A stretch of DNA of 18,618 bases from a virus (taxonomy: Duplodnaviria; Heunggongvirae; Uroviricota; Caudoviricetes). Where the stretch lies: IMG/VR virus record IMGVR_UViG_2778261163_000001. One strand, given 5' to 3'. The notes below the pieces were generated by a model. That model ran no database searches and was not told the origin of the DNA. It saw only the letters and a list, made by a program, of their open reading frames with translations. Shown piece by piece: positions 1-18,491 of this stretch. The position numbers and the translations under genes are program-made. The first letter of the stretch is position 1. Each line of letters begins with the position of its first letter.

Positions 1-574
1 CATCCGCGACAGCCGGACCGCTATAACCGCACTCGTCACCGCGATAGGTCCAGGTGCAGGTGTTGGCCAGCATGATACGTCCCGGAAAAACAGCGCCGTC
101 CGTTTCCGTCGGCGTGGACAGTACAAAAGAGGCACTCACCGCGCTCAGTTCGCTGCACTGCTCGATGCGCCAGCGGCTGATCACCTCCTGCTCCGGATCG
201 GCGTCACTGTTTCCGTTGACGAAGTTCACCGCATCCAGAAAACGGGCGTAAACCTTACGCCGGACCACCGTTCCGCCGACCAGACTCTGCAGATCTTCCG
301 CCATCCCGGTGACCATACCGTACAGGTTAGAAACCGTCAGCGTGGGGCGCGTACTGGTGCCTTTGCCATTCAGTTCAAAACCACTCCCCTGAATGGGATA
401 CGGCTGATACTGTCGCCCCTGCCAGGTGACCGGCTCACCTTTTTCGTTCTGCTCATTACAGAAAAAATAACGTTCTCCACCGACCTCTGTCAGGTCGATT
501 TCCCAGAGCACCACGCTGGCCGACTGCTCCGCACGAATGCATTCATTCAGCGTTTCCTGTTGTATGTCCTGCAT
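1..574 (-). CDS. L: minor tail protein L, 5' portion only (gene runs off the window start)
   Basis: Minus-strand ORF starting ATG at 574..572, overlapping the stop of the M-like gene (ATGA). My own translation reads [72 protein letters not shown]..., which I recognise from memory as near-identical to phage lambda gpL. No stop inside the window, so it is absent from the ORF track. Confidence 0.85.
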   Translation of the reverse strand, partial: MQDIQQETLNECIRAEQSASVVLWEIDLTEVGGERYFFCNEQNEKGEPVTWQGRQYQPYPIQGSGFELNGKGTSTRPTLTVSNLYGMVTGMAEDLQSLVGGTVVRRKVYARFLDAVNFVNGNSDADPEQEVISRWRIEQCSELSAVSASFVLSTPTETDGAVFPGRIMLANTCTWTYRGDECGYSGPAVAD

Positions 575-912
575 CAGATCACCACTTCGTCAAACTGACA
601 CGAAAAATCGGTATAGGTGATATGTTCTGTCGCTGACCACGTTCGACACACCACTCTGATTTTTCTGTTAATACCCGGCGGGCGCCAAAAAAAAGATTTA
701 TAGCCTTCATGCCGGGCTAAAAATTCTTCAAATGAATCACGTTCATTCGCCTCAACTTTGAAATCACAGGTGAAAACGCGCAGAGAATGATTAAGTCCAT
801 TTGGACTTCGTTGCTCATAACCATCACCAAATCTTACAGTTTTTATCGATGGTTTATTTTCTGTTTTCATTCCATCCTCTGGTAACCAGTGAAATTCTTC
901 CGTATTAGCCAC
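574..912 (-). CDS. M: minor tail protein, lambda gpM-like
   Basis: 112-aa ORF with GTG start at 912 preceded by GGGGGA; overlaps the tape measure stop. Contains VRFGDGY and ends ...QFDEVVI, resembling lambda gpM (ends ...EQVVN) at similar length. Position between tape measure and L matches lambda order H-M-L. Confidence 0.75.
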
Positions 913-3900
913 TTAACATTCCCCCATCACGTCGCATATTTAACAGATTGCCCTGCACCCGCTGATCAACCATCCCCATAAGTGCTTTTATTGCCTGAGG
1001 GCCAATCTCTCCATTCTGGCCGTCATTTTGAATAGTGATTTGGTATACAGGGGCATAGGTAATATCTCCGCCTCCATTACCACTTTTACTATTAATAGCT
1101 CTGACACCAAGAGAACCATCGGAAGTTCGTGTTAATGGCATAATGGCTTCCGGTCCAGCCTCACCAAAAACACCAGCCCCTTTTGCAAAAGCAAAAAATT
1201 GCGGGGAATCATAAATACCGTTCGAATACGTGCTCAATGACGGAGACTCATAAACACCGCCCTTTGCATTCGGAATAAATTTACTAATAGCACTCCCGAT
1301 AGTTCCTAAAATCCCCCCAGAAGAACTGTTACTAATGCTGTCGAAAATCCCAGTAATTGAAGCCTTTAATGCTATTCGACTAAGATCCGAAATCACGGAA
1401 GTAGCGAAAGAACGAAAATTTGCCTTGCCTGTCGTGACAAAATCACCCAGCGCATCGGTCATTCCATCAAACATCTGAGTCGTGGTTGATTTTATCTGCT
1501 CACTGATATCCTTAGTGTCATCCAGCCAGTTATTGAATCCCTGGGAGGCACCACTAACCCAGTCTCCTGCCTGAATATCGAGCTGCTCGTTTTTCTGTCT
1601 GACAATTTCTTTTTCCCGTTCCAGAGCATCATTCAGAGCCTGCATTTTCTCTTGAAAAACATGATCTGACATTCCACGGGATTTATCTGCATAGTCACGT
1701 TCAAGTTGCAGACGCTGATTGTTATATCCATGTTCAATCCGCAGTAATTCCTGCTGGCGTTGCTGATTTTTATCGCCAACCCCATAACCAGCAATCTGAA
1801 TATCATACCCCTGCTGACGATTATCAATCGAAGCCTGCAATGAATCACGCCATGCTGTTATTTCGGCGGATTCCTTGATTAGCCTGTTATTTTTTTCAAT
1901 CGCAACATTTTTCTCCATCAACGTGGTTATTTCTTCCCGGTGTAAGAGAAGCGATTTCTGATCCTGGGTTAATTTCGATGATGGTCGTGACTCTAGGTCG
2001 GCAATCCGCTGACGCCACTTAACCAGTTCCTGTTCAGAGGAACTTAATTTAACGGTCAACTCAGCTTGTGAACTTAGTAACGCATTCTGTTGATTCAGAT
2101 GATCAATCATTCGTTGGGCTGCATCATCAGAATAACCTTTCGCCTTTGGTTGCTTTGGATCTTTATAACGCTCATTTATTTGAGCGATAAGATTATTATA
2201 TTCTTCCTTTGAATACTGATTCTTTAGCTTTTCCAGTTTTGCAAGTTCACTAGCTCTCTGCTGCTCCCGGGTCTGATATTGTTTTGAAAAGGCATCTGCT
2301 CTCTGTCTGAGTTCAATTCCTTCCTGTTGTCGCTTGTTGTAATCGTTTATTGATGAATTTAGTACGTCCTGAGCAATTTTTTCTGCTTGAAGTACGCCCA
2401 ATTGCTGCTTTAATCGTGCCAGCCTTTTATTTTGAGCTCCGCCATCTCCAATGCCACCTAACCCGAAAACTCCGGGTCGGGTATTTTTTTCTATTTCATC
2501 AATTTGACGGAGAACATCTGAGATTTTTTGATCAAGGGAGGCCTCACGGCCAATATCCAGCATGGAATCCCATGCCCATTTTGCGGAGTCTGCGACAGCT
2601 TTCCATGCAGTCTCAAGATAACCAAGATTTTCTTTAATCTGGTTGGTGCGCTGGATCATTGAGGATGAGTATTCTTCTGTCGCAATGCGGGCGGCCTCCT
2701 GCTGGTTCCCTTCATCCTGTAGCGCCTTAATCTGGTTATAAGTCGCAAGTGTCAGAAAATGGTACTGATCATTAAGTTTTGATATGGCACTGACAGGATC
2801 CTTTGCAATTTCATTGAAGTCATTAACCAGTTGTTCGGTTGATATTCCTGTTACTTCGCTCGTTTTTACTATCGCTGTCGTCACTTGCTCCAGCGAACTG
2901 CTCGCTACCTTTCCCGAACGCACAAGCTGATTTAATACTGCCGCCGCAGCACCAGTTGTCGAATCAGCCGCATTCCCGGCACGTTGAGCTATATCGCCCA
3001 ATTGCCCGCTGGTTGTCCCCAACTGATTTCCGGTAAGAATAAGAGATTTATTAAATTCGTCCTGCTCCTGAGAGCCTTTATAGTAAGCCAGTCCTAAGAC
3101 CCCAACGGCTGCTGCGGCCAGGGTAAAAGGATTAATTAATCCCAGCACATAAGAACCTACACCTTTGATCGCCGGGCCAATCCCACCGAACATATCTTTT
3201 AGCTGGCCGCCCTGCTGCATTAACACCATAAATGGCGACTGACCAGTGGACAACCCAACAACAATATCCGTCATTTGTGCAGGCAACATGCGCATAGCAA
3301 AAGCCGTTTGTTTTGCCGACATTCCGGTTTTGCTTAATTGTGATTGAGTAACCTCAAGCTCACTCCGCATAGCACGAAGTTTTCCAGAAAGCTCCTCATA
3401 CATTTCAGGAGAAAGCATCCCCTTAGCTTTTGCTTCATTGAGCTGTTTCTGTTGTTCTACCAGACGATTAAAAGCAGTTCCGACAGGATCAAGTTGAGCA
3501 ATCAGACGTTGCAAAGCAACAACCTGTTCATCATGCGCTTTTGCTGCTTCTCGCTCTGCCTGAGCCTCTCCGGTAAGCTCTCGCCGTGTTTCCTGTATTT
3601 TTCGGCTATAATTCTCAAACTGAGAACCATTTATTTTCCCGGATGCAAACGCAGCATTAAGTTCATCATGCTGTTGTTCAAGATTTCTTAGCGCCGCAGC
3701 CAGAGGGTCGATCTTGTCCAGCATTCTTTGAAAGGCCTGAGCCTGCGCTTCCTGCTGGGCGGCAGCAAGTTTTCCGGCCTTCTCGGCTTCTCTCTGCGCT
3801 TGCGCAACCCCGCTCAATTCCTCTGTGGTTTCATTAAGTTTACGGACAAGAAATTCATATTCTTCTTTATCAATAAGCCCTTTATCGAAAAATTTCTTTA

Positions 3901-4138
3901 ATTCAGAATAGCGTCGACCGACAGTATCAATTGCGGCACCAACTGGATCAATAGCTGCTTTTAATTTTGCGAGCGCGTTCTTCTCATCTTCTGTTGCCTT
4001 AGTCACTTTCCCTGCGCTATTTGCAGCAGTTTCCCCAGCCTGCGTCATTTTGACTAATGAGGAGGTCAGATTGTCAGCATTATTTTTCGCTCCAGTGCTA
4101 TCAATAATTATTGCGAGACGCGAGGTTTGCTCTGCCAT
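905..4138 (-). CDS. tail tape measure protein
   Basis: 1077-aa ORF, ATG at 4138 with AGGAG upstream. Highly alpha-helical, Ala/Gln/Glu-rich N-terminal half with three degenerate ~60-70 aa repeats ([15 protein letters not shown]... / [15 protein letters not shown]... / [15 protein letters not shown]...); Gly-rich C-terminus. Sits immediately downstream of the frameshifted chaperone pair, as in siphovirus tail modules. Confidence 0.9.
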
Positions 4139-4151
4139 TTATTAAAACTCC

Positions 4152-4182
4152 TGACAACAAAAAACCCACCGCGAAGTGGGTT
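4152..4182 (-). terminator. putative intrinsic terminator in the chaperone/tape-measure intergenic gap
   Basis: On the minus strand: AACCCAC-TTCGCG-GTGGGTT hairpin followed by TTTTTTGTTGT. The plus-strand reading has no U-tract, so it is oriented for minus-strand transcription. Confidence 0.45.
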
Positions 4183-4303
4183 TCAGGCGACATAATAGTA
4201 GATATAGCGATTACGAGGCCACGCAATGCTTTTCTCCAGGAGCATCATCGATTTAATTAAAGACACCATCACATCTCTGTAACAGAGTGTACGTAATTAA
4301 CAA

Positions 4304-5073
4304 CTACACACACTGCTCCTGAAAATACTGGTCATCCAGTGCAAAGATCACTGCTTCAAATTCATCGCGCTCAATCAATACCGGATGAGTGGCTAAATAT
4401 TCATTTATCTCTGTCAGAGATAAAGGCAAAGGCACCCCAGCCATTCCAGCATAACGTCGGGCACGGGATATTACCGAATAGGCGTACAACAACTCCTTAA
4501 GCACCGGGTCTATTTCTGGTTCCGGTATCGGTGGCAACCTGAGTTTTTCTCGCTTCCATCTTGCCTTTTCCCCCCTTTCTCCCCCGAACTCCGATAACCA
4601 CCGCTGGGCAGCTATGGCTTTTTTATCGTATCCTGCTTCTGCTGCTCTTTACCCTGGGCGATGCTGGCTGCTTCTGCAAGGATCTGCCAGTACAACTCTG
4701 GATTCTGCTTAAGCAGCGCGATCCCTCGTTCTGCCGTATATTCCAGTGCAACCTCAACACCATTAACCAGTTCACCAACCCCTTTCCAGTCTTTCAGCAG
4801 ATAACGAGCGGCATTATCAATGAGTAAATCATCAACAGAATCCACCTCGGAAACCTTTGAAATATCAAACTCCTTCGTTCCGACGTGCAAACTGGCATCC
4901 ATTTTCTCAATGTGGCGACGGATTAATGCATTACGGGAGCGATACTGATCGTTATCGCTGCTTGCCACCAACAGTTTTAACCCGTCTACAGGTTTTAAGT
5001 CCTTCATTGGCGTAAACCAGCGTTCTCCACCAATGATAATTTTCTGATTAAGAATAAACATCCATAACCTCAT
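4304..5073 (-). CDS. tail assembly chaperone frameshift product (gpGT-like), made by a -1 shift at 4618..4624
   Basis: After a -1 slip at A AAA AAG the reading frame stays open with no stop (..AIAAQRWLSEFGGERGEKARWKREKLRL..) and runs in frame into the track ORF 4304..4537 (PPIPEPEIDPVLKELL...). I checked this codon by codon. The 4304..4537 ORF has only a TTG 'start', consistent with expression solely as a fusion. Predicted product about 256 aa. Confidence 0.7.
4612..5073 (-). CDS. tail assembly chaperone (lambda gpG-like, short form)
   Basis: 153-aa ORF directly upstream of the tape measure gene, ending ...DTIKKP-TAG with the slippery heptamer A_AAA_AAG two codons before the stop. Confidence 0.75.
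   Translation of the reverse strand: MRLWMFILNQKIIIGGERWFTPMKDLKPVDGLKLLVASSDNDQYRSRNALIRRHIEKMDASLHVGTKEFDISKVSEVDSVDDLLIDNAARYLLKDWKGVGELVNGVEVALEYTAERGIALLKQNPELYWQILAEAASIAQGKEQQKQDTIKKP
4618..4624 (-). other. programmed -1 ribosomal frameshift slippery heptamer A_AAA_AAG
   Basis: Plus-strand CTTTTTT at 4618..4624 is AAAAAAG on the minus strand, in the 0-frame register A AAA AAG, followed by a G-rich stretch (GGGGGAGAAAGGGGGG). Confidence 0.7.
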
Positions 5074-5121
5074 TCAATGCGTCCCCCTGTAGGGCAGTAC
5101 CACAGGAGGAATAACGGAAAA

Positions 5122-6084
5122 TCAACTAATCGCCTCAGCACTGGCTTTTGCGATCACGGCAGCCGGGGAATTTTTTTTTCTGGTTATCGTAGGTGCTTCA
5201 TCTGCTGCGGTAATGCTCAATTGAACCTGGATAATGTCGCTATTACCCCCATCAGGCCATTCACCTGACACCTGAACCTTCGGGAAACTGAAAGTGTATG
5301 CCCCCTCTCCATTCGAAAGCGTGAAGCTGAACGGAACTGTTTCTCCAGTCAGTGTTTTACTCCAGATTTCCCACGCGGCTTTAGACCATGAAAGCGTCAC
5401 CGTACCGGACGGTGTAAAAGTAGTCGGAATATTTGCTCCTGCATAAGGCGAGCCAGTCCCGATACAACGCTGTGTCTGGAGTTTGTTATCGAACTGAATA
5501 TCAAAACTGTCGATACAAAAACCGTTACCTCCGGCAACACCATTCAGGCTTACTGCTGAAACCTCCTTAAACGAATAACGTAGCTTTCCTGCACTATCCA
5601 CAGGTTCGCCTTTGATAAAATTCGTATCATCGGCCTTTGATTCCCAGTCCAGTCCGGCAAAGGTTACGGTCGCTGTAATATCGCCGTCGTTAGGGATCTG
5701 CATTTTCCATGAGCCAACCTGCGCTCCTCTGACGACAGAGGCAATTCCGACATCGGACGCATAGGTCGCCAGAGAAAATGTTATTCGCTCATTCCCCATT
5801 GTCAGAGAATCGCCTGACCATTCCGCGCCGAAACAGGATGCAAGAAAATCATCATGTTGACCCCAGCGAAATTTGGTACCAACATCACCGCCGACATCCA
5901 CAGTGCCAGGCGTCGCCCCCTGAGCCATCCGGGAGCCACCAATCTCATTATTTTCGCCTTTATTCTGGGTGGGTTTTACTCCCCAGCTTGTGCGTTTTAA
6001 TAAACTCCAGTCACCACTTGCTGGCGTAGTGCCTGCAACCGTCTCCCGGATAAATGCCGAGATAACCTTTGCACCTGAACTCAC
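5122..6084 (-). CDS. major tail (tube) protein
   Basis: 320-aa ORF with GTG start at 6084 preceded by AGGAGG at 5-nt spacing. Gly/Thr/Ser-rich, beta-rich-looking sequence. Assigned by position between the head-tail joining genes and the chaperone/tape-measure genes; no specific family recognised. Confidence 0.65.
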   Translation of the reverse strand: MSSGAKVISAFIRETVAGTTPASGDWSLLKRTSWGVKPTQNKGENNEIGGSRMAQGATPGTVDVGGDVGTKFRWGQHDDFLASCFGAEWSGDSLTMGNERITFSLATYASDVGIASVVRGAQVGSWKMQIPNDGDITATVTFAGLDWESKADDTNFIKGEPVDSAGKLRYSFKEVSAVSLNGVAGGNGFCIDSFDIQFDNKLQTQRCIGTGSPYAGANIPTTFTPSGTVTLSWSKAAWEIWSKTLTGETVPFSFTLSNGEGAYTFSFPKVQVSGEWPDGGNSDIIQVQLSITAADEAPTITRKKNSPAAVIAKASAEAIS

Positions 6085-6110
6085 AGGAGCCTCCTATGTC
6101 ATTAATTGCG

Positions 6111-6503
6111 CTAGAGCGCGCGATATGGAATTTGAAGATTAAGCTGGAACCAGCCATTCTTTTCGCCAACGGCTATTGAGGAAACAGCCTGGTAACTGAG
6201 ACGATCGTCATCCTGAAACTCAAACAGTTCCCGCAATTTATCGGCTGTCTCAGTAATGAGTTTTGAACCAGAACCTGCGGGGACAAATAACTGAATAATG
6301 ATTATCCCCGTGCGATAAACAACCGGCCCCGCGCCAATTTCATTAACTCCAGCCTGCCCGGGAATATTACTTAACCGCGCCCAGATTAACTTACCGGAAG
6401 GATCGAACGTTGGCCCGTTCGGATACAATACATCTTTTCCATCAATAATCGTCTGTGCCGTCATTCTGGAAATAACCGTATTTCTGATTTCAGTAAACTT
6501 CAT
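6111..6503 (-). CDS. tail terminator / tail completion protein (by position, lambda gpU-like)
   Basis: 130-aa ORF immediately upstream of the major tail gene; its start overlaps the preceding gene (ATGA). Confidence 0.5.
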   Translation of the reverse strand: MKFTEIRNTVISRMTAQTIIDGKDVLYPNGPTFDPSGKLIWARLSNIPGQAGVNEIGAGPVVYRTGIIIIQLFVPAGSGSKLITETADKLRELFEFQDDDRLSYQAVSSIAVGEKNGWFQLNLQIPYRAL

Positions 6504-6880
6504 TTGTAAGCCTGTAAAACACCATGAAAAGCGTTGGCATACACTCCAGTTGGCGCTTGTTGTGAATGACCGTTTTCAAGAGCCTCTGCATAAGGAAGGT
6601 TATTCTGGATATAAATAACCCCGTAATTTGCAGCTTTCGAAATAACCCCGATCCCACGCTGAACAGCAATCGTACCGTTCGGATCCACGTTATCAGATAT
6701 ACCAAAATCGGGATGCTGTAACGACACCAGGTTGTTATTTCTGAAACGTCCGGTATCAACCGGAGCAGCAATATCAATAGCAGTAAGAATCTGCATAGCG
6801 ATGTAGCGAATCTTCAGCCCTACATCTTCCTCAATCATCCCGGCAAATATTGACGGTTCTATATCCCATGCCTTTGCCAT
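6500..6880 (-). CDS. tail component / head-tail joining protein (HK97 gp10-like by position)
   Basis: 126-aa ORF, tightly packed in the run of four small genes between capsid and major tail. Confidence 0.5.
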   Translation of the reverse strand: MAKAWDIEPSIFAGMIEEDVGLKIRYIAMQILTAIDIAAPVDTGRFRNNNLVSLQHPDFGISDNVDPNGTIAVQRGIGVISKAANYGVIYIQNNLPYAEALENGHSQQAPTGVYANAFHGVLQAYK

Positions 6881-7264
6881 TTACGCTCTCCTTAACTGGA
6901 TAGAGTAAACTGATGCGGAAGGATCTACACTTGCTGTAATTACCTCGTATCGTTGTAACTGCCTTGATACAGGATCATAAATCTCAATAATATGGTCGAC
7001 AGCTGGTTTATCCGTAACCTCGCATACCAGAGCGGTTAATTTAAGGTCACCATGCAAAATATTAATCCCATCAATTCTGCCCAGCTTATAACGTGTCAAC
7101 ACGCCTCGCCCGGTATAGATTGCGGTGGATTCGCCGCCAGTTTCCGTCACAGGATCCCAGTGCCGGTGCGTAACGTAAGAACCAGAAAAATCACTCACGG
7201 CGTCCGCTAAATCCTCATCAAAAGCAGCGGCAACCTCTGACTGAATCTCTTCACGAAGCCCCAT
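6881..7264 (-). CDS. head-tail joining protein (head closure / stopper by position)
   Basis: 127-aa ORF; abuts the upstream gene with a 1-nt overlap and is contiguous with the next. Confidence 0.5.
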   Translation of the reverse strand: MGLREEIQSEVAAAFDEDLADAVSDFSGSYVTHRHWDPVTETGGESTAIYTGRGVLTRYKLGRIDGINILHGDLKLTALVCEVTDKPAVDHIIEIYDPVSRQLQRYEVITASVDPSASVYSIQLRRA

Positions 7265-7659
7265 TATCCCCCCCTCACAACCCTGACTTGTGAGCGACTA
7301 AGTCCGTACGGTTTCAGCAGTGCTATCGCAAGCTGTAAATCGGGTTCAAGCAATGCAGTGCTGTTTGCTGGCAACTCAGAAAATGATTTCGATACACTGA
7401 CCCCGTCAGCCGACACGGCTTTACTGATAACAACGCCAGAATCATTTTTCTGCTGAAACAACTTACCGAATGAGGCAATTCTGGCTGCATATGCTCCCGC
7501 AAGTTTTACCTCTTCCGGAATACGGGATGGGTTAATTTTCAGGTTGAAGCCATTAAGCCAGGCATTAGCCATTAAAACAGCTTTATTTTTAGCGTTCTCA
7601 CTCGTCCAGGCGTTCCCAAACGCATTATCAACGTCATCACAGGTCACGTAAGTGATCAT
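7264..7659 (-). CDS. head-tail connector / adaptor protein (by position)
   Basis: 131-aa ORF, ATG at 7659 preceded by AGGAG at 6-nt spacing; first of the four small head-tail genes after the capsid gene. Confidence 0.5.
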   Translation of the reverse strand: MITYVTCDDVDNAFGNAWTSENAKNKAVLMANAWLNGFNLKINPSRIPEEVKLAGAYAARIASFGKLFQQKNDSGVVISKAVSADGVSVSKSFSELPANSTALLEPDLQLAIALLKPYGLSRSQVRVVRGG

Positions 7660-7662
7660 GTG

Positions 7663-7839
7663 TTACTCCTGAGTTTTCCAGCCCATAGCCTTCCAGTTGT
7701 CAACTTCATCAGGATGAACATTAGCGATAGTTGGTGCGCCGGGAAACATCTGATAATCGGTCACCATAACCACTAACTCAATTTGCGTTTTTTGTGCGGC
7801 TTCACGCTGTGCTCTTTGCTCTTTAGTTAATCCGGCCAT
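7663..7839 (-). CDS. small hypothetical protein (58 aa), not in the ORF track
   Basis: Found by my own translation: ATG at 7839..7837 to TAA at 7665..7663, giving MAGLTKEQRAQREAAQKTQIELVVMVTDYQMFPGAPTIANVHPDEVDNWKAMGWKTQE. Preceded by a G-rich stretch; its 3' end carries the AGGAG Shine-Dalgarno of the next gene and stops 3 nt before that gene's ATG. Confidence 0.4.
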   Translation of the reverse strand: MAGLTKEQRAQREAAQKTQIELVVMVTDYQMFPGAPTIANVHPDEVDNWKAMGWKTQE

Positions 7840-7848
7840 ATGCCCCCC

Positions 7849-7871
7849 ATTAAAAATGGGGCCGAAGCCCC
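7849..7871 (-). terminator. putative intrinsic terminator just downstream of the major capsid gene
   Basis: Minus strand, 20 nt after the capsid TAA: GGGGC-UUCG-GCCCC hairpin (5-bp GC stem, UUCG tetraloop) followed by AUUUUUAAU. Confidence 0.5.
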
Positions 7872-7881
7872 GTTTGAATGT

Positions 7882-9021
7882 TTAACCAAGAATCAGACAA
7901 CCATGTGCCGGCTTCACTGATGAAACACCCCATGCCAGTCCAACTTCATAGCGCACCTGGCGATACTGACGATACAGTGCAATCTGGAACGTAATCCCTG
8001 AAATCGGGTCCGTAACATTCATTACATCATCAGCATTATCGCCACCTTCCGGCATTGCCGGAGTACGGGATGCCAGCAGAAACGCGTTGCGATCAAACGC
8101 CATATTTGCAGTAAAGGCCCCAACAACTGTGATGGCAGTATCATCGGCCAGATCCTGACGCAGTCCGGGCGCTGCAAGAGTAATCAGATTGCTGGTCGCT
8201 GCTGCCACAACATACTGATTCGGATCACCAGCGAACGTAACAATCTGACCTGCAGAAATACTCCCCGAACCAGTATCAATGGAAATAAGAACATCGCCTT
8301 CTTTTTTCTCTCCATTCACGAGATAACCAGTTGCAGCAACCTTTGGCGCTCGTTTCACACCTGCCGAACTGTGAATATTGAATCCCTCCAGACGCCCCAA
8401 CACGCCCTCACGCAGTAGCTGTTCAGTGCCGGATTCATTCACTTTAAACAATACAGACTGTTTTCCGCGCAAATTAGCAATGGCAGTGGAGCCAAGCACC
8501 ATCTGCAGATCGGTTGTCGGTGCGCCGTTATCCTCCAGAACCTGACGAGCCAGAGCAGCATCAGAAAGATCATCTTTAACACCAAACGGCGTTGTCCCTG
8601 CGGTTCCCACGGCGCGGGAAGCACCGAAATACAACGCACCAAGATCAGCCTCAACCTCGTTTGCAAGGGCGCGAAAAGCCTGCTTGAACTGATCAGCCAG
8701 AATGGTGTTGTAAGTCCCTGAAGGGCCAAGAGCCAGTTGTTCTTCACCATTCCATTTAACCGGTGCCATTTTGGATTTAGTAATTTTTACATCAACAGTG
8801 CCAATATTTTGATCACCGGTATTCGGAGCTGACGGCCCCGGTACGATATCTTCGGTTTTCGCCTCAGGCGCAACTGGCGCGGTTACCGTCTGATCTTTTG
8901 CTGCGGCGTCAGCTTTTGCGTTTTTTGCTACCGCAGGGATAAAACCTACCTGCTCACGGGATACAACATCCAGGGCGGTATAAATAGTCGGGATCAACCC
9001 GGTCAGGGTATTTCCAGCCAT
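7882..9021 (-). CDS. major capsid protein
   Basis: ORF downstream of the scaffold gene and upstream of the head-tail genes. The track start (9114) is a TTG extension; the likely start is ATG at 9021 (MAGNTLTGLIPTIYTALDV..., 379 aa). Followed by a terminator-like hairpin, as is common after capsid genes. Confidence 0.7.
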   Translation of the reverse strand: MAGNTLTGLIPTIYTALDVVSREQVGFIPAVAKNAKADAAAKDQTVTAPVAPEAKTEDIVPGPSAPNTGDQNIGTVDVKITKSKMAPVKWNGEEQLALGPSGTYNTILADQFKQAFRALANEVEADLGALYFGASRAVGTAGTTPFGVKDDLSDAALARQVLEDNGAPTTDLQMVLGSTAIANLRGKQSVLFKVNESGTEQLLREGVLGRLEGFNIHSSAGVKRAPKVAATGYLVNGEKKEGDVLISIDTGSGSISAGQIVTFAGDPNQYVVAAATSNLITLAAPGLRQDLADDTAITVVGAFTANMAFDRNAFLLASRTPAMPEGGDNADDVMNVTDPISGITFQIALYRQYRQVRYEVGLAWGVSSVKPAHGCLILG

Positions 9022-9119
9022 AATTAAATATTCCTTAAAAATTTGCGTAATTGTGAATAGATGGAGTAATGAGCTATCCAGCCCTGACACCAGCTCCCAT
9101 CCGGAAGCTGACAAATGTG

Positions 9120-9884
9120 TTAATCAACGATTGTGATACCGTCTTTCAATGCGTTTTGCTTACCTGCAACATCCAGTGCATCAAAAGCAGAGCGTTTCAT
9201 CGTTTTCTGACCAATATCATGCTGTGTCGGACGGGAGCCGCCGCCATTGTTGCCACTGGCTTTCAGGATGTAGTCTTTCTGAGGGTAATTTTCGACAAGG
9301 AACTCCAGCGCCTCATCAAACTGCGCCAGTTCGCCAGGCTTCGCGCGGGAATAAATTTTGTTGCCGGAAGCGTCATAAGCAACGATCCTCCCTTCTTCCA
9401 CTTTGAATGCCTGCCCGAAGCGGGCTTGTAATAAATCTGCCGGGATCGCAATTTTATCGGCAATATATTTTGAACCCGCAAAACTACCGCCAATCATAGA
9501 ATCGTAAAGCTGCTTCTCCAGCATCTGAGAGCGTTGCTTTTCTTCATCTAATTGCTGCTGAAAATTTTTCGTAATTTCTGCCTTAACCTGGTCAACCTGT
9601 CCCGCATCGAGCAGCTTTTTCTGGTCGATTTTTGACAGCATTTCCAGTGCCTCGATCGCCTTCTTCGGGTCTTCGATAGCGGCAAACTTAGCCAGTTTTT
9701 CCTCTGCAGCTTCTTTAGCCAGGCGATGATTTTTTGCCTCGCCATTAAGCTCTGTAATTTTTTTTGTCGCCAGCGGTGCATCGAAGCCAATTTCTTTACC
9801 ATCGTCGTGCACATAAACTGGCAGGCCAGCAGTATCAATTTCTGCGTATTGTTTTCCGTTAATCTCGACCGTTTTCAGTTTCAT
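9120..9884 (-). CDS. scaffolding protein (putative)
   Basis: Likely start ATG at 9884 (MKLKTVEINGKQYAEIDTAGL..., 254 aa; the track ORF is extended upstream). Charged, helical-looking middle region (AKEAAEEKLAKFAAIEDPKKAIEALEMLSKIDQKKL...QQQLDEEKQRSQMLEKQL). Position between the minor head protein and the major capsid gene. Confidence 0.55.
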   Translation of the reverse strand: MKLKTVEINGKQYAEIDTAGLPVYVHDDGKEIGFDAPLATKKITELNGEAKNHRLAKEAAEEKLAKFAAIEDPKKAIEALEMLSKIDQKKLLDAGQVDQVKAEITKNFQQQLDEEKQRSQMLEKQLYDSMIGGSFAGSKYIADKIAIPADLLQARFGQAFKVEEGRIVAYDASGNKIYSRAKPGELAQFDEALEFLVENYPQKDYILKASGNNGGGSRPTQHDIGQKTMKRSAFDALDVAGKQNALKDGITIVD

Positions 9885-9941
9885 ATTAGTACCTGGTTTA
9901 AGTCTTCCGACAGTTACGCTGCTCACCATCCGGATCGCAGC

Positions 9942-9969
9942 AATAAAAAAGGCCACCCGAAGGTAGCCT
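9942..9969 (-). terminator. putative intrinsic terminator between the minor head and scaffold genes
   Basis: Minus strand: AGGCUACC-UUCG-GGUGGCCU (8-bp stem with one G-U pair, UUCG loop) followed by UUUUUAUUG, starting about 20 nt after the minor head protein stop. Confidence 0.5.
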
Positions 9970-9988
9970 GTTGTAATAAATGATTTAT

Positions 9989-11104
9989 TTAAATCCCTGC
10001 TTTTCTGAATACCTGTGCATCACGCTCACGGAGCTGCTTCAGCGTCAGCCATTCGCCTTTATCGGTGTAAAATTCATCTGGCGACATACCACCATCCCGA
10101 ATCAGCTTTGCTCGGGTTTCCCCCACAATCTGTTTTTGTCTGGTGTAAGGCTGACGCAAAAACCATTCCCTGTAGGTTGTATCTCCGGCCACCACGCCAT
10201 CCATGCTGGCCCGCTCAGCCGGGGAAATATCGCGAACATCAATACCCAGTTCCTTCGCTGATTTCAGAATGAACGTTTCCGTTGAGCGGCAGCAGAAATG
10301 AATTTTTCCCGGCCCCTGCAAATAAGGCACGCTGTGACCTATAGGTTTATTATTCAGCGTATATTTGAGGCGATCCCTGATTCGACATTGTGGCGTAGTA
10401 CGATTATCAAGCGTTGATAACCATTGCTTACCCTTAATCAAATCATTATTCGCGCTGGCAAAACTCTCACGGGCAGTAGCAGCAAGATGTCCAACCGCTG
10501 TTTTTGCAATGCTGGCCGCATTAGCCCGGCTCATCTGCAATGCACCATCCTGAAATCCCTTACTGACATGTCCCCGAATTTTTCTTGCGATCTGCTCATT
10601 GGTATCCCCCAGCAAAAAACCCTGACGCACTGTATTTGTTATGCGTCTGAGCCGATCCGCCTCAAGATCTGAGGCCCACTCACTGAGCAGTCGTCCCTGG
10701 AATGGTCGCGCCATTGCAGCGGCATAAAGTGCATCAGGAGAGATACCAACCAGAGGGTGAACATCAGCAACAAAATCAGGTAGCATAGAATCAAACAGAC
10801 TTAACTGATAACCAGCCTCATAAATTGCCAGCTCGTTCAGCTCTCCGGAGAGACTGGTAAACATGCTGTTAATAGCAGTGCGGTTAACCTCTCTGACGCT
10901 CGCCAGAAGTGACTCCAGGCGCTTAACGGTAAAACTACCTGGATCGAGGCTGTCCAGTGCTATCAGCAGGCGAGCAGTAAGTTCCGCATCGCTGTCATTC
11001 AGTATTTTCACCATTCTGGCAGCCACGCCAGTGCTATAGCGGGATATCCAGACTGCATGAGCAATTGATTCATCACGCAGCCGTTCATTCACGGTTTGCA
11101 TCAT
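9989..11104 (-). CDS. phage head morphogenesis / minor head protein (Mu gpF / SPP1 gp7 family)
   Basis: 371-aa ORF directly downstream of the portal gene (20-nt overlap). C-terminal region ...WLSTLDNRTTPQCRIRDRLKYTLNNKPIG...GPGKIHFCCRST fits the conserved core of the Mu-F-like family as I remember it. Confidence 0.65.
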   Translation of the reverse strand: MMQTVNERLRDESIAHAVWISRYSTGVAARMVKILNDSDAELTARLLIALDSLDPGSFTVKRLESLLASVREVNRTAINSMFTSLSGELNELAIYEAGYQLSLFDSMLPDFVADVHPLVGISPDALYAAAMARPFQGRLLSEWASDLEADRLRRITNTVRQGFLLGDTNEQIARKIRGHVSKGFQDGALQMSRANAASIAKTAVGHLAATARESFASANNDLIKGKQWLSTLDNRTTPQCRIRDRLKYTLNNKPIGHSVPYLQGPGKIHFCCRSTETFILKSAKELGIDVRDISPAERASMDGVVAGDTTYREWFLRQPYTRQKQIVGETRAKLIRDGGMSPDEFYTDKGEWLTLKQLRERDAQVFRKAGI

Positions 11105-12491
11105 TGATTTCCATCAGCATTACACTCTGATTTTTTAATTCATCGATCACTTCCTCTGGACGGGAATCCTGATCGATAAATTTCAACGCCTGCAACACCC
11201 GAACCGCATCAATCTGACGTATATCACCGCCCTGACGCAATGACTGAACAGCCAGCGCGGAGGATGAGTCAAACACCTGGGCAGATACATCCAGTTCAGT
11301 GCGCACATCCACATTGCCACCGCAACTCTCTCCGATCCATTCCGCCATTATCTGGAGAATATTATCGAGGGCATCTTCGAGGGAGTTCGCCATTGTATAA
11401 AGCGGCGAGTTTTCCTGCATTCGCTCTTCATTAGTCTGATCAACAGATTTGGTGGATGTATTTTCAGCACGCAGAAGTTTAGCGCCGGCATGACGCATCT
11501 GATTTTCCAGCTTCTCAAGTGATGTTTCGCCAGATTCTATCGCTGCGCCACTATGTTCAACATATTCGAGGCCATTTTTTGTTCTGTCCTCAAAAATCGT
11601 AGCGGTGGATGCACCAACCGTCAGTTCTTCATTCCTGTCCAGCCCGTAGGCCACCAGCAATGGAACGCGGGCAACATGAAGAATATTGTCCTGCTCGCTC
11701 TGGCTTTGCCAGTGCTTGATATTCAGCAAGCCAAGATTAAGCAATGGCGGTGTACCACGCATAAATCCTGTTTTCTTCGTGTACAGTGTTACCAGAGGAA
11801 TATCATCACGGCTGGTATTCCATGACTCATGAAGCGTCCAGACAGATTCGCCATTAGTGCCTTCGCTACGTCGATAAATTTCAACTCGACGGGGCATAAT
11901 ATGGCGGATCTGCTCCACCTTCTTCTGCCCGAAATCATCACCATCAATAATGATGACCTCTTTTATACGCAAATCAGTGAGAACAACTTTCCCTTTTTCA
12001 ACTTTCGATTTCCATCCAATAACCTGGCGTGGATTCAGCATCGTAACGTACGGACGACCACCGGTCGCGTTTTCATCGGCTTTTGTCCGAATCTCTTTCA
12101 TATCCGTTCGTGGATAGTCCACCAGCGCATGTGCCACACCATACTGAAATGCGAGGCTGAAAAATTGCTGCGCCCACACATCCAGTCGGCTCCCCTCCAT
12201 GTCGATATTTTCTGCATATTCCCTGATTTTTGCCGGCGTTTCCTCACTCAATACTGTCGGCTCTGCAAATATGCGCCCAATATTTTGCTTGATGCTTTCT
12301 TCATACACAGGAAGTAGCGTAGCCACAGACAGGCGTTTTTTATAAGCGTCTTCATCTTCGTTAGGCCATTTTGGGAGATAATTTTCCCCCTGCCTGCGCA
12401 TTTCAAGCGTACCGCCCATCAGTGCGTCGTTAATATCCCACGCCTCCAGCATATCGTTATAGTCGAGGTTGGGTGTTGATATATCAGCCAT
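11085..12491 (-). CDS. portal protein
   Basis: 468-aa ORF starting 2 nt after the terS-terL pair ends (TAA-TT-ATG), between terL and the minor head protein, which is the canonical portal position. Acidic, large protein. Confidence 0.75.
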   Translation of the reverse strand: MADISTPNLDYNDMLEAWDINDALMGGTLEMRRQGENYLPKWPNEDEDAYKKRLSVATLLPVYEESIKQNIGRIFAEPTVLSEETPAKIREYAENIDMEGSRLDVWAQQFFSLAFQYGVAHALVDYPRTDMKEIRTKADENATGGRPYVTMLNPRQVIGWKSKVEKGKVVLTDLRIKEVIIIDGDDFGQKKVEQIRHIMPRRVEIYRRSEGTNGESVWTLHESWNTSRDDIPLVTLYTKKTGFMRGTPPLLNLGLLNIKHWQSQSEQDNILHVARVPLLVAYGLDRNEELTVGASTATIFEDRTKNGLEYVEHSGAAIESGETSLEKLENQMRHAGAKLLRAENTSTKSVDQTNEERMQENSPLYTMANSLEDALDNILQIMAEWIGESCGGNVDVRTELDVSAQVFDSSSALAVQSLRQGGDIRQIDAVRVLQALKFIDQDSRPEEVIDELKNQSVMLMEINDANRE

Positions 12492-12493
12492 AA

Positions 12494-13795
12494 TTAAATC
12501 CGAAGTGATGTGACTCTTCCGGTCGGTTTGACAATAGGGAATTGCTTAACGATGAAATAACCTCCGGCATCATTCGGGTGATCATTGCCAGATTTTTTAT
12601 CAGGCTCCCCCTTCTCATCCCAGACCTGTTGCTCCAGAGATTCGGCATATAACGGGCAACGCTTCACATTAACTTTATAGCGACGCTCACCATTGGCATT
12701 GCAGAACATTGCATTCATTGAGTTAACGCGATCTTTTACTGGCGGGTTCGAGCTGTTCACCACAACGTTAAAACCAGCCTGCTTAAGCTGGGCTATATCC
12801 GTCGTACTTGCGTTACTTGATTTTCTGGAATCCCCGGAAGCATCTGGATAAATATAAATTTCCCTCACTTTCCGGTAATCATTCCCATCATACAGCCAGA
12901 AGCGTTCTTTAATGATGCGGATCATATCCGGCGTATCGTAGGCATTGATGATTTCAGTTACCGCACATGGAAGCCCCAAACGCAGCACATGGACGATTCC
13001 CGCCATCTTTCCAACGTTAAAATCCATCCCAATATAAATCGGCTCCCCTGGCTGCTCCACTTCTTCGCAATTATTCAGTTTCCGGTCAAACTGATGGTAA
13101 ACAGTACCACTTGTCAGGTTAGTAAACTGTCCTCGAAGATAGGCTTTAATCAGCTCTGGAGGGTATGATTCAAGAAGCGAAGGAATGTAATCTGCTGGCA
13201 GGTTCTTTTCATTATCGAAAGTAGATGCCTGCACTAGACCATACAGTGAGGCCAGCTCTGTTTTTTCACGCACGGCTTTAACAAACTGCTCGTAGACAAA
13301 TTTGAATCCTTCCGGCGTGGTTGTAACGTCAATACCGTTGCGAAGTCCATCAATCTTATAACGCATACGTGCAATTATCTTGCGCCACGCCGTTCTGGCT
13401 TTTTCCTTCGGCAAAATGTCCAGTTCATCCACCAACGCATTACCAATTTTGAAACCGACGATCGTTTGTGGCTTCTCCATCGATCTGCAGATAGTGGTTC
13501 CCCGATACTGGCGTCCGTAATAAAAGTGAACCTCTTTATTTCCCTCATTAATTTTTACGTTCAATCCCCAGTCAGCAGCAACTTCTTCCACTGTAGGGTA
13601 AAAAATATCGCGAATTTGGGGATACGTTGGCGCAAAATATCCCTGATTTATACCTGGATGCTCCCAAATCCCCTTGCATATGCCGCCACACCCAACCCAT
13701 GTTTTGCCCGAGCCAAAACCAGCAATATAGGCTTTAAATTTATGGGGCATTGAAAGAAATCGCGCCTGAGGCACATTAAGCGTCGGAGAGATCAT
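12494..13795 (-). CDS. terL: terminase large subunit
   Basis: Walker A (YIAGFGSGKTW), Walker B-like (NALVDELD), and C-terminal nuclease-type acidic motifs (IGMDFN, YPDASGD, HPNDAGGYF). Likely start is ATG at 13795 (MISPTL..., 433 aa), 8 nt after AAGGAG; the track's 13804 start is GTG. Confidence 0.9.
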   Translation of the reverse strand: MISPTLNVPQARFLSMPHKFKAYIAGFGSGKTWVGCGGICKGIWEHPGINQGYFAPTYPQIRDIFYPTVEEVAADWGLNVKINEGNKEVHFYYGRQYRGTTICRSMEKPQTIVGFKIGNALVDELDILPKEKARTAWRKIIARMRYKIDGLRNGIDVTTTPEGFKFVYEQFVKAVREKTELASLYGLVQASTFDNEKNLPADYIPSLLESYPPELIKAYLRGQFTNLTSGTVYHQFDRKLNNCEEVEQPGEPIYIGMDFNVGKMAGIVHVLRLGLPCAVTEIINAYDTPDMIRIIKERFWLYDGNDYRKVREIYIYPDASGDSRKSSNASTTDIAQLKQAGFNVVVNSSNPPVKDRVNSMNAMFCNANGERRYKVNVKRCPLYAESLEQQVWDEKGEPDKKSGNDHPNDAGGYFIVKQFPIVKPTGRVTSLRI

Positions 13796-14870
13796 CTTCA
13801 TCACTCCTTACTCTGGCATCAACCACATTAATATTGATCGCCACAGGCTGGGGATGTTCATTATCCTCCACCGTTTCGATCTCTTTGCGCAGCTTCTGGT
13901 TTTCTATTCTGCGCCGTTCAATTTCCAGTTCCTGTAGCCGCTTATCTGCACATAATGCCCCGCCAGCAGAAAGCAAACGCAACAATTCACGCCGGGCGGC
14001 AGCCTTATCCTCCAGCAGGATCTCAACACCGTATTTTCCGAGCTTTGACCCTGCATATAATTGCCGCGCATCCCCATCAAGCAGTGTGGTATCAGCCATA
14101 TAAAGCTGTCCCGTTCCCTCACCGCAGCACTTCGGGCAATCCGGATTGGGTATGGCGTTATCAACAAAGCCGAGGCCTCCATATTCCGGCTCGGGTTTAC
14201 CATCTCTGGAGGCCTGTGCCGCAGCCTTATCGAATTCTGCAATATCACGCCACTGGTAGAGATGATTCTCGCCCCAGCAATAACGGCAGTTAACACGGCG
14301 AAATTGTGCCAACTGATTGGGGTCGGCCTGGACAATGGCCATCAACTGGCTCACCAGTAAATCCAGGTCTGCGGTATAGCGTTTCTGGTACTGATTGCGG
14401 AAGTAGCTGATAGCACGATAAACCCTGGCATTTCTAAGCATACGACTGGCGTTGCTGTTAGCTGTCGCACCTTGCCCCTCATAACCGGCTAGTCGGTACG
14501 CCTCTGTCGGCTTTTTACCCTGAGCAACAAGCATCGCAAACTTAGCCTGCTGGTCAGAAATGCCGAATTCATCGGGACAGAACGAAAATTCCTCCGCGTC
14601 GCCTTCATTCAGGCCCGCATCGAATACTGGCTTTTTTTCCTGAGATTTTTCGTTCCGCTTTTGTGCAGTCTGCGCAGATTTTTTCTGCGCACTTTTTTGC
14701 GCAGTTTTGCGCATTTCTGTCTGCGCATTTTTCGGAGTTTTTTTGATGTAACGACGGGCTGTTGCGTAATTCAGTCCCCTTGCTTCACACCATGCCACCG
14801 GAGATATACCGGAGCGGGTGTATTCAGCAATATACTCCTGCTGCAACGCCCCCCAGTCCGGTCTGCTCAT
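13776..14870 (-). CDS. terS: terminase small subunit (long form, with Cys4 cluster)
   Basis: Immediately upstream of terL and overlapping it. Central segment ...SDQQAKFAMLVAQGKKPTEAYRLAGYEGQGATANSNASRMLRNARVYRAISYF... fits the small-terminase HTH pattern. Also has an N-terminal HTH-like region, a Lys/Gln/Ala-rich linker, and a CxxC...CxxC cluster (CRYCWGENH...CPKCCGEG). Confidence 0.75.
   Translation of the reverse strand: MSRPDWGALQQEYIAEYTRSGISPVAWCEARGLNYATARRYIKKTPKNAQTEMRKTAQKSAQKKSAQTAQKRNEKSQEKKPVFDAGLNEGDAEEFSFCPDEFGISDQQAKFAMLVAQGKKPTEAYRLAGYEGQGATANSNASRMLRNARVYRAISYFRNQYQKRYTADLDLLVSQLMAIVQADPNQLAQFRRVNCRYCWGENHLYQWRDIAEFDKAAAQASRDGKPEPEYGGLGFVDNAIPNPDCPKCCGEGTGQLYMADTTLLDGDARQLYAGSKLGKYGVEILLEDKAAARRELLRLLSAGGALCADKRLQELEIERRRIENQKLRKEIETVEDNEHPQPVAININVVDARVRSDEDDLSDA
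14662..14727. repeat. phased array of palindromic TGCGCA hexamers separated by T-tracts, inside terS; candidate pac / terminase-binding site
   Basis: Five exact TGCGCA copies at 14671, 14686, 14698, 14708 and 14722, plus a TGTGCA variant at 14662, spaced 9-15 bp apart with T-runs between them. They coincide with the AQK-repeat linker of TerS. The repeat itself is read directly; the function is inference. Confidence 0.4.
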
Positions 14871-14873
14871 CAG

Positions 14874-15125
14874 TTAGTCCTGATTTTTATCCACCCTGAG
14901 TAGTTCGCGCAGAGCAAAGGCATCCCCTTTTCTGGCAAGCTTAAACAATGCCGCTCGTAACTCGGCTTCACCTTTCGCTCTGCCCTTACGGATGGCCGCA
15001 TAAAAATCTGTCATTGCTTCCCGATTTTCTTTCAGTCGGTTCAGATCAACATCCAGAACGTCAGCGATTTGTTGTGCAGTCATCCGGCACGCTGCCAGAG
15101 ACTCGACTTTCGAATACGGAATCAT
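14874..15125 (-). CDS. small helix-turn-helix protein, function unknown (possibly packaging-associated)
   Basis: 83-aa ORF, ATG at 15125 preceded by GGGGGTGA. Segment TAQQIADVLDVDLNRLKENRE looks like an HTH. Stops 3 nt before the terS start; overlaps the 3' end of the upstream glycosyltransferase-like gene by about 65 nt. Confidence 0.4.
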   Translation of the reverse strand: MIPYSKVESLAACRMTAQQIADVLDVDLNRLKENREAMTDFYAAIRKGRAKGEAELRAALFKLARKGDAFALRELLRVDKNQD

Positions 15126-15993
15126 TTGTCACCCCCATTGATATGCAGGGTGTCTTCTTCCTGTATTTTTCGTGAAGGATTTTTACTGCAGCGTTGTTCC
15201 AGGTGACCTGATGGTGAATGCGTTTATGGCTGGCACCCATCAGTGAAATTTTTACGCACGACGGCGCATACATGACGGAGTAAAAACTTTTAACGTAGGT
15301 TCCGGAATCCAGATACAGCTCGGTCATTCCGCCGCTGTTTTTCTGCGTCTGTTTCTGCCCTAACTGGACAGCACCGATCGTCATAAACAATTCACCACAG
15401 CGACCGAGATTCGTGTACGTATTCACATCCTCGTTAATGCGCCCCATGAATGAGAACGGTCGATCAACCGAACAGATAAAGCTGTTCATTGCCTTGCGTT
15501 TCACCCACGAAGCATGGCCGCCATTGTCACCAAGAAAATCCCCGCCCTGCGACATAGCGATGGAAAGAGCAGGTATTGATTCGTAGTACGCCAGCATTTC
15601 AGAAAGGATCGCATCCAGTTTCCTTATCGGAAAATAGGCCTGGTCATAGTTGCGATCCACCCGAAACTGGAACTCGTGATAATCATCATCGAGCTGAATG
15701 AAGTATTTACACCCGACCAGTTTTGCCAGGTCGAAACAGGCATTACGGGCGTAAAAAATTGAGCGGCGGTCACAGAAATTATCGGCTTCGTCAAAACGAC
15801 TGGCGATATCGGTTTTGGAAAACACCAGCACCTGTTCACCAAATTCAGCCATGTACTGATGCCGTGTCTTATCTTCATCATCAACAACGATAAAAATTTT
15901 CCCGGTATAGCCAGCACGACGCAACGTTCGGTAAGTCAGAACTTTGTCCGGTCGCCCGTGAGTCAGAATAAAGGCGCAAAAATCATCACGCAT
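15061..15993 (-). CDS. GT-A-fold (GT2-like) glycosyltransferase-like protein, soluble
   Basis: Likely start ATG at 15993, 5 nt after GAGGAGGAGG (310 aa; the track start at 16014 lacks an SD). Motif layout typical of nucleotide-sugar GT-A enzymes: N-terminal strand AFILTHGR, acidic pair after strand 2 (KIFIVVDDED), and a DxD motif in the context ARNACFDLAKLVGCKYFIQLDDDYHEF. No obvious hydrophobic membrane segments. Confidence 0.5.
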   Translation of the reverse strand: MRDDFCAFILTHGRPDKVLTYRTLRRAGYTGKIFIVVDDEDKTRHQYMAEFGEQVLVFSKTDIASRFDEADNFCDRRSIFYARNACFDLAKLVGCKYFIQLDDDYHEFQFRVDRNYDQAYFPIRKLDAILSEMLAYYESIPALSIAMSQGGDFLGDNGGHASWVKRKAMNSFICSVDRPFSFMGRINEDVNTYTNLGRCGELFMTIGAVQLGQKQTQKNSGGMTELYLDSGTYVKSFYSVMYAPSCVKISLMGASHKRIHHQVTWNNAAVKILHEKYRKKTPCISMGVTNDSVFESRVSGSVPDDCTTNR

Positions 15994-16777: not shown

Positions 16778-16791
16778 ACATCCTTGCTTTA

Positions 16792-16829
16792 TGAATAAAA
16801 CGCACCCCAGCAGCCAGTGCTACTGGGGG
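16792..16829 (-). terminator. putative intrinsic terminator downstream of trkG
   Basis: Minus strand: CCCCAGUAGC-ACUG-GCUGCUGGGG (10-bp stem with one U-G pair) followed by UGCGUUUUAUU, lying between the trkG stop (16915) and the ParB-like start (16777). Confidence 0.55.
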
Positions 16830-16914
16830 CGGAGGTGTTGCTGGTAAAGTTAGGTATTGGATCAATGAGTGAGTCAACATAATATTAAACTCACAATTAT
16901 AAATCAGCCATATA

Positions 16915-18372: not shown

Positions 18373-18390
18373 ATCTAAATATTCTTTCAA

Positions 18391-18450
18391 TTATAACCAC
18401 CTTGCTGCAATATTATGATTATACTGTATAAAATTTAACTCCTCTTAGAT
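18391..18450 (-). promoter_or_regulatory. putative trkG promoter region
   Basis: Two perfect TATAAT hexamers on the minus strand upstream of the trkG start (complement of 18390..18395 and of 18418..18423) in AT-rich sequence. No convincing -35 hexamer and no clear Shine-Dalgarno, so placement is tentative. Confidence 0.3.
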
Positions 18451-18491
18451 CTTACTTCACTGTTCCTTATGAAACAATCATCAAAATGAAT

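Follow-up and report, generated by a model that had tools for sequence, protein, structure and literature searches.

How does a tail gene that is nearly identical to its counterpart in phage lambda come to lie directly beside genes that are foreign to lambda? The question is raised by a stretch of viral DNA of 18,618 nucleotides (IMG/VR record IMGVR_UViG_2778261163_000001, Caudoviricetes), the whole of which was analyzed and is called the window here. A preliminary description, made from the sequence alone, had placed a recombination breakpoint near the boundary between the tail genes M and L, joining a lambda-type tail tip to a different tail shaft. The analysis bore this out and located a further crossover inside L. 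We are highly confident that the locus belongs to an intact Rac prophage and is a recombinational mosaic of two layers; both breakpoints, the extent to which relatives share them and recurrent discordant M/L pairs in other lambdoid phages were directly observed.

Every gene in the window lies on the minus strand (Table 1). M overlaps its neighbours on both sides, the tape measure gene at its own start and L at its own stop, with the L start codon (574–572) and the M stop codon (576–574) sharing the sequence ATGA. In the chaperone pair, the slippery heptamer A_AAA_AAG occurs at 4624–4618 in the correct phase, the −1 frame is open to 4304, and residues 3–231 of the 234 in the fused product match PHROG 313 'tail assembly chaperone' (E = 6e-46). 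No Rfam family matched anywhere in the window.

Table 1. Tail genes, recombination segments and junctions in the window (window coordinates)
Feature	Position	Strand	Remarks
Partial L (tail-tip hub protein)	2..574	-	Codons 1-191 of 232; 3' end beyond window; PHROG 18 minor tail protein
M (distal tail protein, gpM family, Rac-type allele)	574..912	-	GTG start, 112 aa
Tail tape measure protein	905..4138	-	1077 aa; distant gpH homologue
Tail assembly chaperone pair, Rac-type shaft	4304..5073	-	YdaY and -1 frame extension
Tail tube protein, Rac-type shaft	5122..6084	-	Phage_tube_2 family
Lambda-proper-like patch within L	1..488	-	Lambda alleles at informative sites
Crossover interval of the nested exchange	489..535	-	47 nt without a variable site
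Transition zone	536..596	-	Last 22 nt of M, ATGA overlap, first 13 codons of L
Deep mosaic junction	596..597	.	End of all nucleotide homology to lambda

To place the boundary, the window was compared with GenBank phages by megablast. Positions 1–596 aligned to lambda (J02459) 13407–14002 at 97.1% identity, and the rest of the window gave no alignment to the first 24 kb of lambda. When the two sequences were aligned without gaps on the L start codon, identity to lambda was 98.9% over positions 1–535 (6 mismatches), 82.0% over 536–596 (11 mismatches) and 43.4% over 597–912, which is the chance level for DNA. The best single breakpoint by maximum chi-square fell after position 596, separating 579 matches in 596 positions from 137 in 316, and none of 300 permutations reached the observed maximum chi-square value. 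This breakpoint lies 22 nt within the 3' end of M, and the DNA on its upstream-gene side is unrelated to lambda. L has a GC content of 0.577, M one of 0.411 and the tape measure gene one of 0.449, and the value thus changes by 17 points at the boundary. The M/L boundary is an abrupt recombinational module junction, silent sites included; high identity to lambda stops at 596 and extends neither into M nor into the tape measure gene, in agreement with the breakpoint first proposed. No direct or inverted repeats were found in window positions 1–1300, and none of the window's three Chi sites (11651, 12119 and 17640) lies near the junction.

On the tip side of the junction, the near-identity of L to lambda gpL that had been noticed holds on alignment: 187 of 191 residues (97.9%) are the same, the four differences being R5Q, T13I, M95L and Y124D. 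The fragment differs from lambda at 13 of 573 nt, and since the differences are few and 7 of the 13 lie in synonymous codons, the conservation extends to silent sites; unequal constraint on the two proteins cannot account for the step. The Pfam family PF05100 (Phage_tail_L) was matched at profile positions 1–164 of 206 (E = 4.3e-82), and membership of the gpL family is established over the N-terminal beta-sandwich (HDI) domain, residues 1–166. The C-terminal iron-sulfur-binding domain of gpL is given as residues 154–232 (PMC10721106); the window covers L only to codon 191, where Cys173 and Cys182 are both present and beyond which the later cysteines of the domain fall. The full-length L of a 99%-identical relative, the prophage of strain E275a, is 97.8% identical to gpL.

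On the shaft side, M had been credited with motif-level similarity to lambda gpM only. The quoted motifs, VRFGDGY and ...EVV near the C-terminus, are indeed present, but the resemblance goes further: M aligns with gpM at 41.9% protein identity over 105 aa, ungapped (E = 1e-33), and Pfam PF05939 (Phage_min_tail) covers it fully, from position 1 to 108 of 108 (E = 1.3e-31). From its sequence and its place between the tape measure gene and L, M is a full-length gpM homologue, and its closest non-Rac counterpart in the GenBank phage collection, found in Stx phages, shares 50% protein identity. The description of the shaft as not lambda-like likewise stood in part. BLASTP found no similarity to the lambda counterparts for the tail tube protein (compared with gpV), the chaperones and the terminator, nor for the connectors, the P22-type coat protein, the DUF4055 portal protein and the terminase. 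The tape measure protein, by contrast, retains 28% identity to lambda gpH over 853 aligned columns (E = 3e-76) and contains the domains TMP_2 (E = 1.4e-81), Tape_meas_lam_C (E = 3.9e-26) and TMP_4, so that it is a distant member of the gpH family. The genes for packaging, head, connectors, tail tube, chaperones, tape measure and M form one lineage-specific module.

The origin of this module became apparent from finished chromosomes of Escherichia coli, many of which contain prophages 99.4–99.7% identical to the window. The Rac markers of K-12 MG1655 are near-identical in the window and in Rac order, with trkG–ynaK matched by window 16524–18491 at 99.5% and ydaY–ynaA by 3204–4963 at 99.9%, which places the window in the Rac family; ynaA corresponds to window 3204–4138, a part of the tape measure gene. 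In strain E275a, a prophage 99.7% identical to the window is flanked upstream by the Rac immunity and replication genes racR, ydaS, ydaT, ydaU and ydaV and by sieB, continues downstream with L, K, I, J, lom, a side tail fibre gene and tfaR, and adjoins uspF. The prophage of strain MB06172 (99.4% identical) adjoins pinR, uspF and ompN. K-12 Rac likewise has uspF and ompN as neighbours, of which the stretch examined in E275a shows uspF; integration at ttcA, beside uspF/ompN, is typical of the Rac family. K-12 Rac, a cryptic prophage, differs from the window in having no DNA equivalent to window 4964–16523, which comprises heads and tail shaft, and it is also missing everything below window 3204 down to lomR, hence the M/L junction itself. 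The window represents the undeleted version. We thus assign the window, as far as its sequence and gene order can tell, to an intact E. coli lambdoid prophage of the Rac family, whose late (structural) operon it comprises. Intact, inducible relatives of Rac exist, for example KingRac (PMC6731689).

To estimate how widespread the junction is, we searched 5,426 complete E. coli genomes with a query made up of Rac-type M and the adjoining 3' end of the tape measure gene, and separately with 760 nt spanning the junction (at least 80% covered). The former query was found in 721 genomes, at 99% identity or more in 670, and the latter in 716, about one genome in eight. Of the 721 genomes with a Rac-type M, 716 have a lambda-type L joined on, as do all 10 GenBank phage records with a Rac-type M. 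In the prophages of E275a, MB06172 and 683R6, lambda homology begins at the same base, lambda 13407. A non-recombinant parent, with a Rac-type M and another type of L, was found neither in the 721 E. coli genomes nor among the GenBank phages. The M/L junction is standard architecture of intact Rac prophages and an instance of ordinary phage mosaicism. Where the 760-nt junction query matched a genome at all, it did so at a median of 2 places and at up to 7, indicating that exchange partners are common.

The genes downstream of L lie outside the window and were followed in its close relatives. There, the suggested check whether K, I and J are also lambda-like gave a positive answer for K, I and most of J: L-K-I-J is about 92% identical to lambda overall, mostly 91–99% per 150-nt segment of the alignment, with a divergent stretch within I at about lambda 14900–15200. 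The likeness does not extend to the end of J. Identity to lambda collapses after lambda 18461–18525, the last 130–150 codons of J differ, and the last 199 aa of the E275a J are only 54% identical to lambda J, as against 96–100% identity to the J of Stx-converting phages and phage Chlobot. The relatives therefore share the lambda L-K-I-J module as L, K, I and most of J, whereas M, the tape measure gene and all upstream genes of lambda are unlike the Rac-type window in DNA. As the receptor-binding end of J is unlike that of lambda in these relatives, use of LamB cannot be predicted from the tip; the proposed prediction of LamB or OmpC usage fails in the nearest relatives, E275a lacks the lambda-like J C-terminus that goes with a LamB-dependent host range, and J of the window's own prophage lies beyond the window.

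The relatives also revealed that L itself has more than one source. Lambda and 683R6 differ at 51 positions between 1 and 488, at 47 of which the window agrees with lambda, and at 11 positions between 536 and 596, at all of which it has the Rac-lineage base; this switch of allegiance has a Fisher p value of 2.7e-9. The intervening block, 489–535, consists of 47 nt that are identical in five sequences, namely the window, lambda and three Rac relatives. Beyond it, positions 536–596 are 100% identical to other Rac-type prophages. Comparison with individual strains gave the same picture: 683R6 and MB06172 match the window at 100% from 489 through the junction and at only about 91–92% over 1–535, with every difference at or below 488. 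L is thus chimeric, with Rac-lineage alleles at 536–596 and, at 1–488, lambda alleles that most Rac relatives lack. The crossover of this nested exchange falls within 489–535, about 40–85 nt inside L.

The lambda-like patch continues off the end of the window, and a shorter form of it occurs in E275a, which is 99.1% identical to the window over 1–535 and 100% over 536–596; the E275a patch has the same upstream crossover and ends near window position 38. Three of the 6 mismatches between the window and lambda in the patch (205, 292 and 383) carry the base of the Rac relatives. The patch is uncommon. Among the matches listed for the junction query, only the top 19 genomes reached at least 97% identity, identity of L to the window did not exceed 0.95 in any of six Rac-type IMG/VR contigs, and in Rac-type prophages, where M is at least 99% identical in 670 of 721 genomes, identity in L ranges from about 91% to 99%. 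The patch is a minority, recent state superimposed on an older tip of lambda type with about 92% identity to lambda, and the near-identity of L to lambda results from this second, nested exchange, not from the event that formed the boundary.

Changes of relatedness at M/L are found in other lambdoid phages as well. Compared with lambda at the protein level, phage cdtI has 56% identity in M and 93% in L, and phage Stx2_EH2246 has 45% and 76%, respectively. Around the M stop and the L start, a block of about 25 nt is the same in lambda and Stx2_EH2246, and a version of this conserved island, about 25–30 nt long, is recognisable in cdtI and Rac. The next 13–20 L codons after the island vary in each phage, and high identity resumes at GTGGTGCTCTGGGAAATCGACCTGAC. 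A 22-nt core of the island occurs in at least 120 IMG/VR contigs. In 94 of these, long enough to use and compared by global alignment, M falls into a lambda-type class, a class about 0.60 identical to lambda M, and the Rac-type class, which is at chance (about 0.5 in global alignment). L that is 0.86–0.96 identical to lambda is joined to both the 0.60 and the Rac-type M classes. In all, at least three M classes are found with an L at least 0.87 identical to lambda. A further class has M and L both about 0.75–0.79 identical to lambda, that is, concordant divergence. Two further comparators were set aside: mEp515 has no L directly after M, and HK022 has no island and an L only 32% identical to lambda L. 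Taken together, the phages and contigs show that the M/L boundary is a recurrent seam and not a one-off event.

Can the pattern be explained with fewer exchanges, or with none? If M evolved much faster than L in a vertically inherited H-M-L block, a step in identity could arise with no recombination. In keeping with this, M is always less conserved than L in protein sequence across several lambdoid pairs, as the cdtI and Stx2_EH2246 values show, and the IMG/VR class with about 0.75–0.79 nucleotide identity in both genes diverges concordantly. The difference in rate, however, would have to yield 13 differences in 573 nt of L, 7 of them in synonymous codons, next to M DNA at the chance level of 43%, and silent-site rates cannot differ so strongly between adjacent, overlapping genes. 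Neither the 17-point change in GC content at the boundary nor the finding that Rac relatives with 99% identical M have L alleles 9% apart agrees with unequal rates, and we regard this explanation as extremely improbable. Lambda DNA is a common laboratory contaminant and vector, and the segment that is 98.9% identical to laboratory lambda (1–535) sits at the very end of the window, where lambda DNA might have been joined to a Rac-like contig by assembly or contamination. Such an artefact is scarcely credible given that 716 independently finished E. coli chromosomes and 10 GenBank phage records share the junction, that the complete E275a genome has the patch with the same upstream crossover, and that the patch differs from lambda at 6 positions, at three of which (205, 292, 383) it has the Rac-relative base.

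A simpler recombinational history would have a single crossover inside L, at 489–535, with 536–596 merely conserved and an ancestral Rac tip that was not of lambda type. With no more than 82% identity to lambda, positions 536–596 could owe their conservation to function, since they hold the M C-terminal motif, the ribosome-binding site and the first L codons, MQDI, which recur in Stx2_EH2246 and cdtI. Against a single event stand 683R6 and MB06172, which are free of the patch and nevertheless have L-K-I-J about 92% identical to lambda, starting from lambda 13407. As these patch-free relatives possess a lambda-type tip, such a tip is general in the lineage, and the patch was added to it in a second event; we therefore consider the single-crossover history very unlikely and retain the two-layer mosaic.

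In this mosaic, an old join at 596/597, common to all Rac-type prophages, linked the Rac module to a lambda-type tip, and a recent homologous replacement brought lambda-proper-like sequence into L of the window's prophage. The exchanges may have proceeded by mismatch-tolerant homologous recombination between co-resident or infecting lambdoid genomes, with RecA or the single-strand annealing recombinases of the phages (Rac RecET, lambda Red) as catalysts, and may have started within short conserved sequences, for instance the island at the M stop and L start. Recombination of lambda with K-12 Rac takes place in tail-fibre homology of 88% identity, mainly via Red-beta, and Rac RecET is a related system that possibly contributes to recombination between lambda and Rac (PMC3945230). 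Hybrids would survive if the seam coincides with a structural interface, M being kept with the tube and L-K-I-J being kept together. In lambda, gpM forms a hexameric distal tail ring, one face of which docks electrostatically on the gpV tube, while on the opposite face its E-loops touch the trimeric ring of gpL/gpJ (PMC10721106). We consider it roughly an even chance that this combination of homologous recombination, short conserved seeds and interface viability is the actual mechanism. The role of the island as a recombination site is inferred from sequence, and its conservation could be purely functional, reflecting the FxxVV C-terminus of M, the coupling of L translation to that of M and the ribosome-binding site. 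For the old join, illegitimate recombination with subsequent selection is an equally possible origin.

A more far-reaching and rather doubtful possibility is that the island, together with the invariant block 40–85 nt inside L, constitutes a dedicated recombination linker for swapping whole tail-tip and host-range cassettes between unrelated shafts, which differ in their tube, chaperone and tape-measure families. Swaps of this kind would be possible because the interface of M with L/J is permissive, an L/J ring of lambda type still accepting an M of 42% identity. The M/L boundary would then offer engineers a predictable joint at which the tails of siphophages could be retargeted.

That modules of lambdoid phages meet in mosaic joints is textbook knowledge, and Rac and lambda are a classic recombining pair. 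The finding is therefore already-known biology, and hundreds of finished E. coli genomes already contain the same junction in annotated form. The value of the window is that it displays the deleted part of K-12 Rac, a phage with its own head and shaft on a lambda-type tip. It also marks the M/L boundary, the interface between distal ring and hub in lambda, as a natural point for exchanging tail tips between different shafts, which is relevant to the engineering of phage host range and to prophage typing by tail genes.

The junction resembles the lambdoid junctions described by De Paepe et al. 2014 (PMC3945230) in its abrupt switch between near-identical and unrelated sequence at a gene boundary and in the short zone of diverged homology at its edge. 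The partners are also the same as in that work, where Rac and lambda exchange tail genes experimentally (PMC3945230). The documented exchanges between lambda and Rac lie in stf/tfa (PMC3945230), whereas that of the window lies at M/L, in a part of Rac that is missing from K-12, and, unlike the stf/tfa exchanges, it is accompanied by a second, nested crossover inside L.

The tail assembly chaperone of Rac is encoded by what the RefSeq records examined annotate separately, as two genes: ydaY, whose 3' end reads ...ACC ATA AAA AAG CCA TAG, and a downstream 'hypothetical protein'. A slippery heptamer, A_AAA_AAG, lies at window 4624-4618 in the right phase for -1 slippage, and past ydaY a further ~105 codons are open in the -1 frame, as far as 4304. 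Fusion of the two frames gives a product of 234 aa, and PHROG 313, 'tail assembly chaperone', matches it from end to end (E = 6e-46). The combination of an in-phase heptamer, an open -1 frame and a match spanning the fusion indicates that YdaY and the 'hypothetical protein' are parts of one frameshifted chaperone of the G/GT type.

Features of the tail, head and late-operon genes, with coordinates in the window unless a relative of Rac is named
Feature	Coordinates	Strand	Basis
J gene 3' end	L003 36921-37363; L005 30985-31363		nucleotide identity to lambda
ydaY with -1 frame extension (tail chaperone)	4304-5073	minus	slippery heptamer, open -1 frame, PHROG 313 match
Mu F-like minor head protein, 371 aa	9989-11104	minus	Pfam Phage_Mu_F
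TAGT protein and ParB_N-domain protein	15061-16777	minus	Pfam match / RefSeq annotation
trkG (potassium transporter)	16915-18390	minus	gene in late operon

At its far end, in J, the lambda-type tip module stops at a second sharp junction. In L003 and L005, two sequence stretches from Rac relatives in which the module extends to this gene, nucleotide identity to lambda collapses over the last 130-150 J codons, and the receptor-binding end of J in the relatives shares 96-100% identity with its counterpart in Stx-converting phages and phage Chlobot. The L-K-I-J block of these relatives is otherwise 92-99% lambda-like around a stretch of ~300 nt in gene I (about lambda 14900-15200), where identity in both drops to 51-73%; this stretch is a small internal mosaic patch. 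Chi sites (GCTGGTGG) occur on the minus strand at window 11651, 12119 and 17640, all on the coding strand, and none of these three is near the M/L junction. Shuffles predict 0.42 sites against the 3 observed; the observed density is near the average for the E. coli chromosome.

Flanked by packaging genes and by lysis genes, the latter beyond the upstream end of the window, trkG is a textbook 'moron', a cargo gene within the late operon whose GC content is low (0.378 compared to 0.466 across the whole window). The interval from trkG to the small terminase gene contains a pair that may serve in DNA modification or anti-restriction. One member, a 317-aa protein labeled 'GREB1-related' in RefSeq, matches Pfam TAGT (TET-associated glycosyltransferase; E = 3e-35), and its gene overlaps the end of that for the other, a 263-aa ParB_N-domain protein; no TET/JBP gene was seen within the window. 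GenBank record ON470595 annotates the Mu F-like protein as 'NAD+--asparagine ADP-ribosyltransferase', and a C-terminal toxin-like domain is a possible candidate there; Phage_Mu_F is the sole domain found by Pfam.

The ParB_N-domain protein is the full-length form of K-12 YnaK. In K-12, window 16524 is fused directly to window 4963, with one break (16523/16524) falling within the ParB-like gene, so that ynaK is truncated, and the other (4963/4964) inside ydaY, while tape measure homology ends at window 3204 (ynaA fragment, then lomR). These three positions are end points of the deletions that made Rac the cryptic prophage of K-12.
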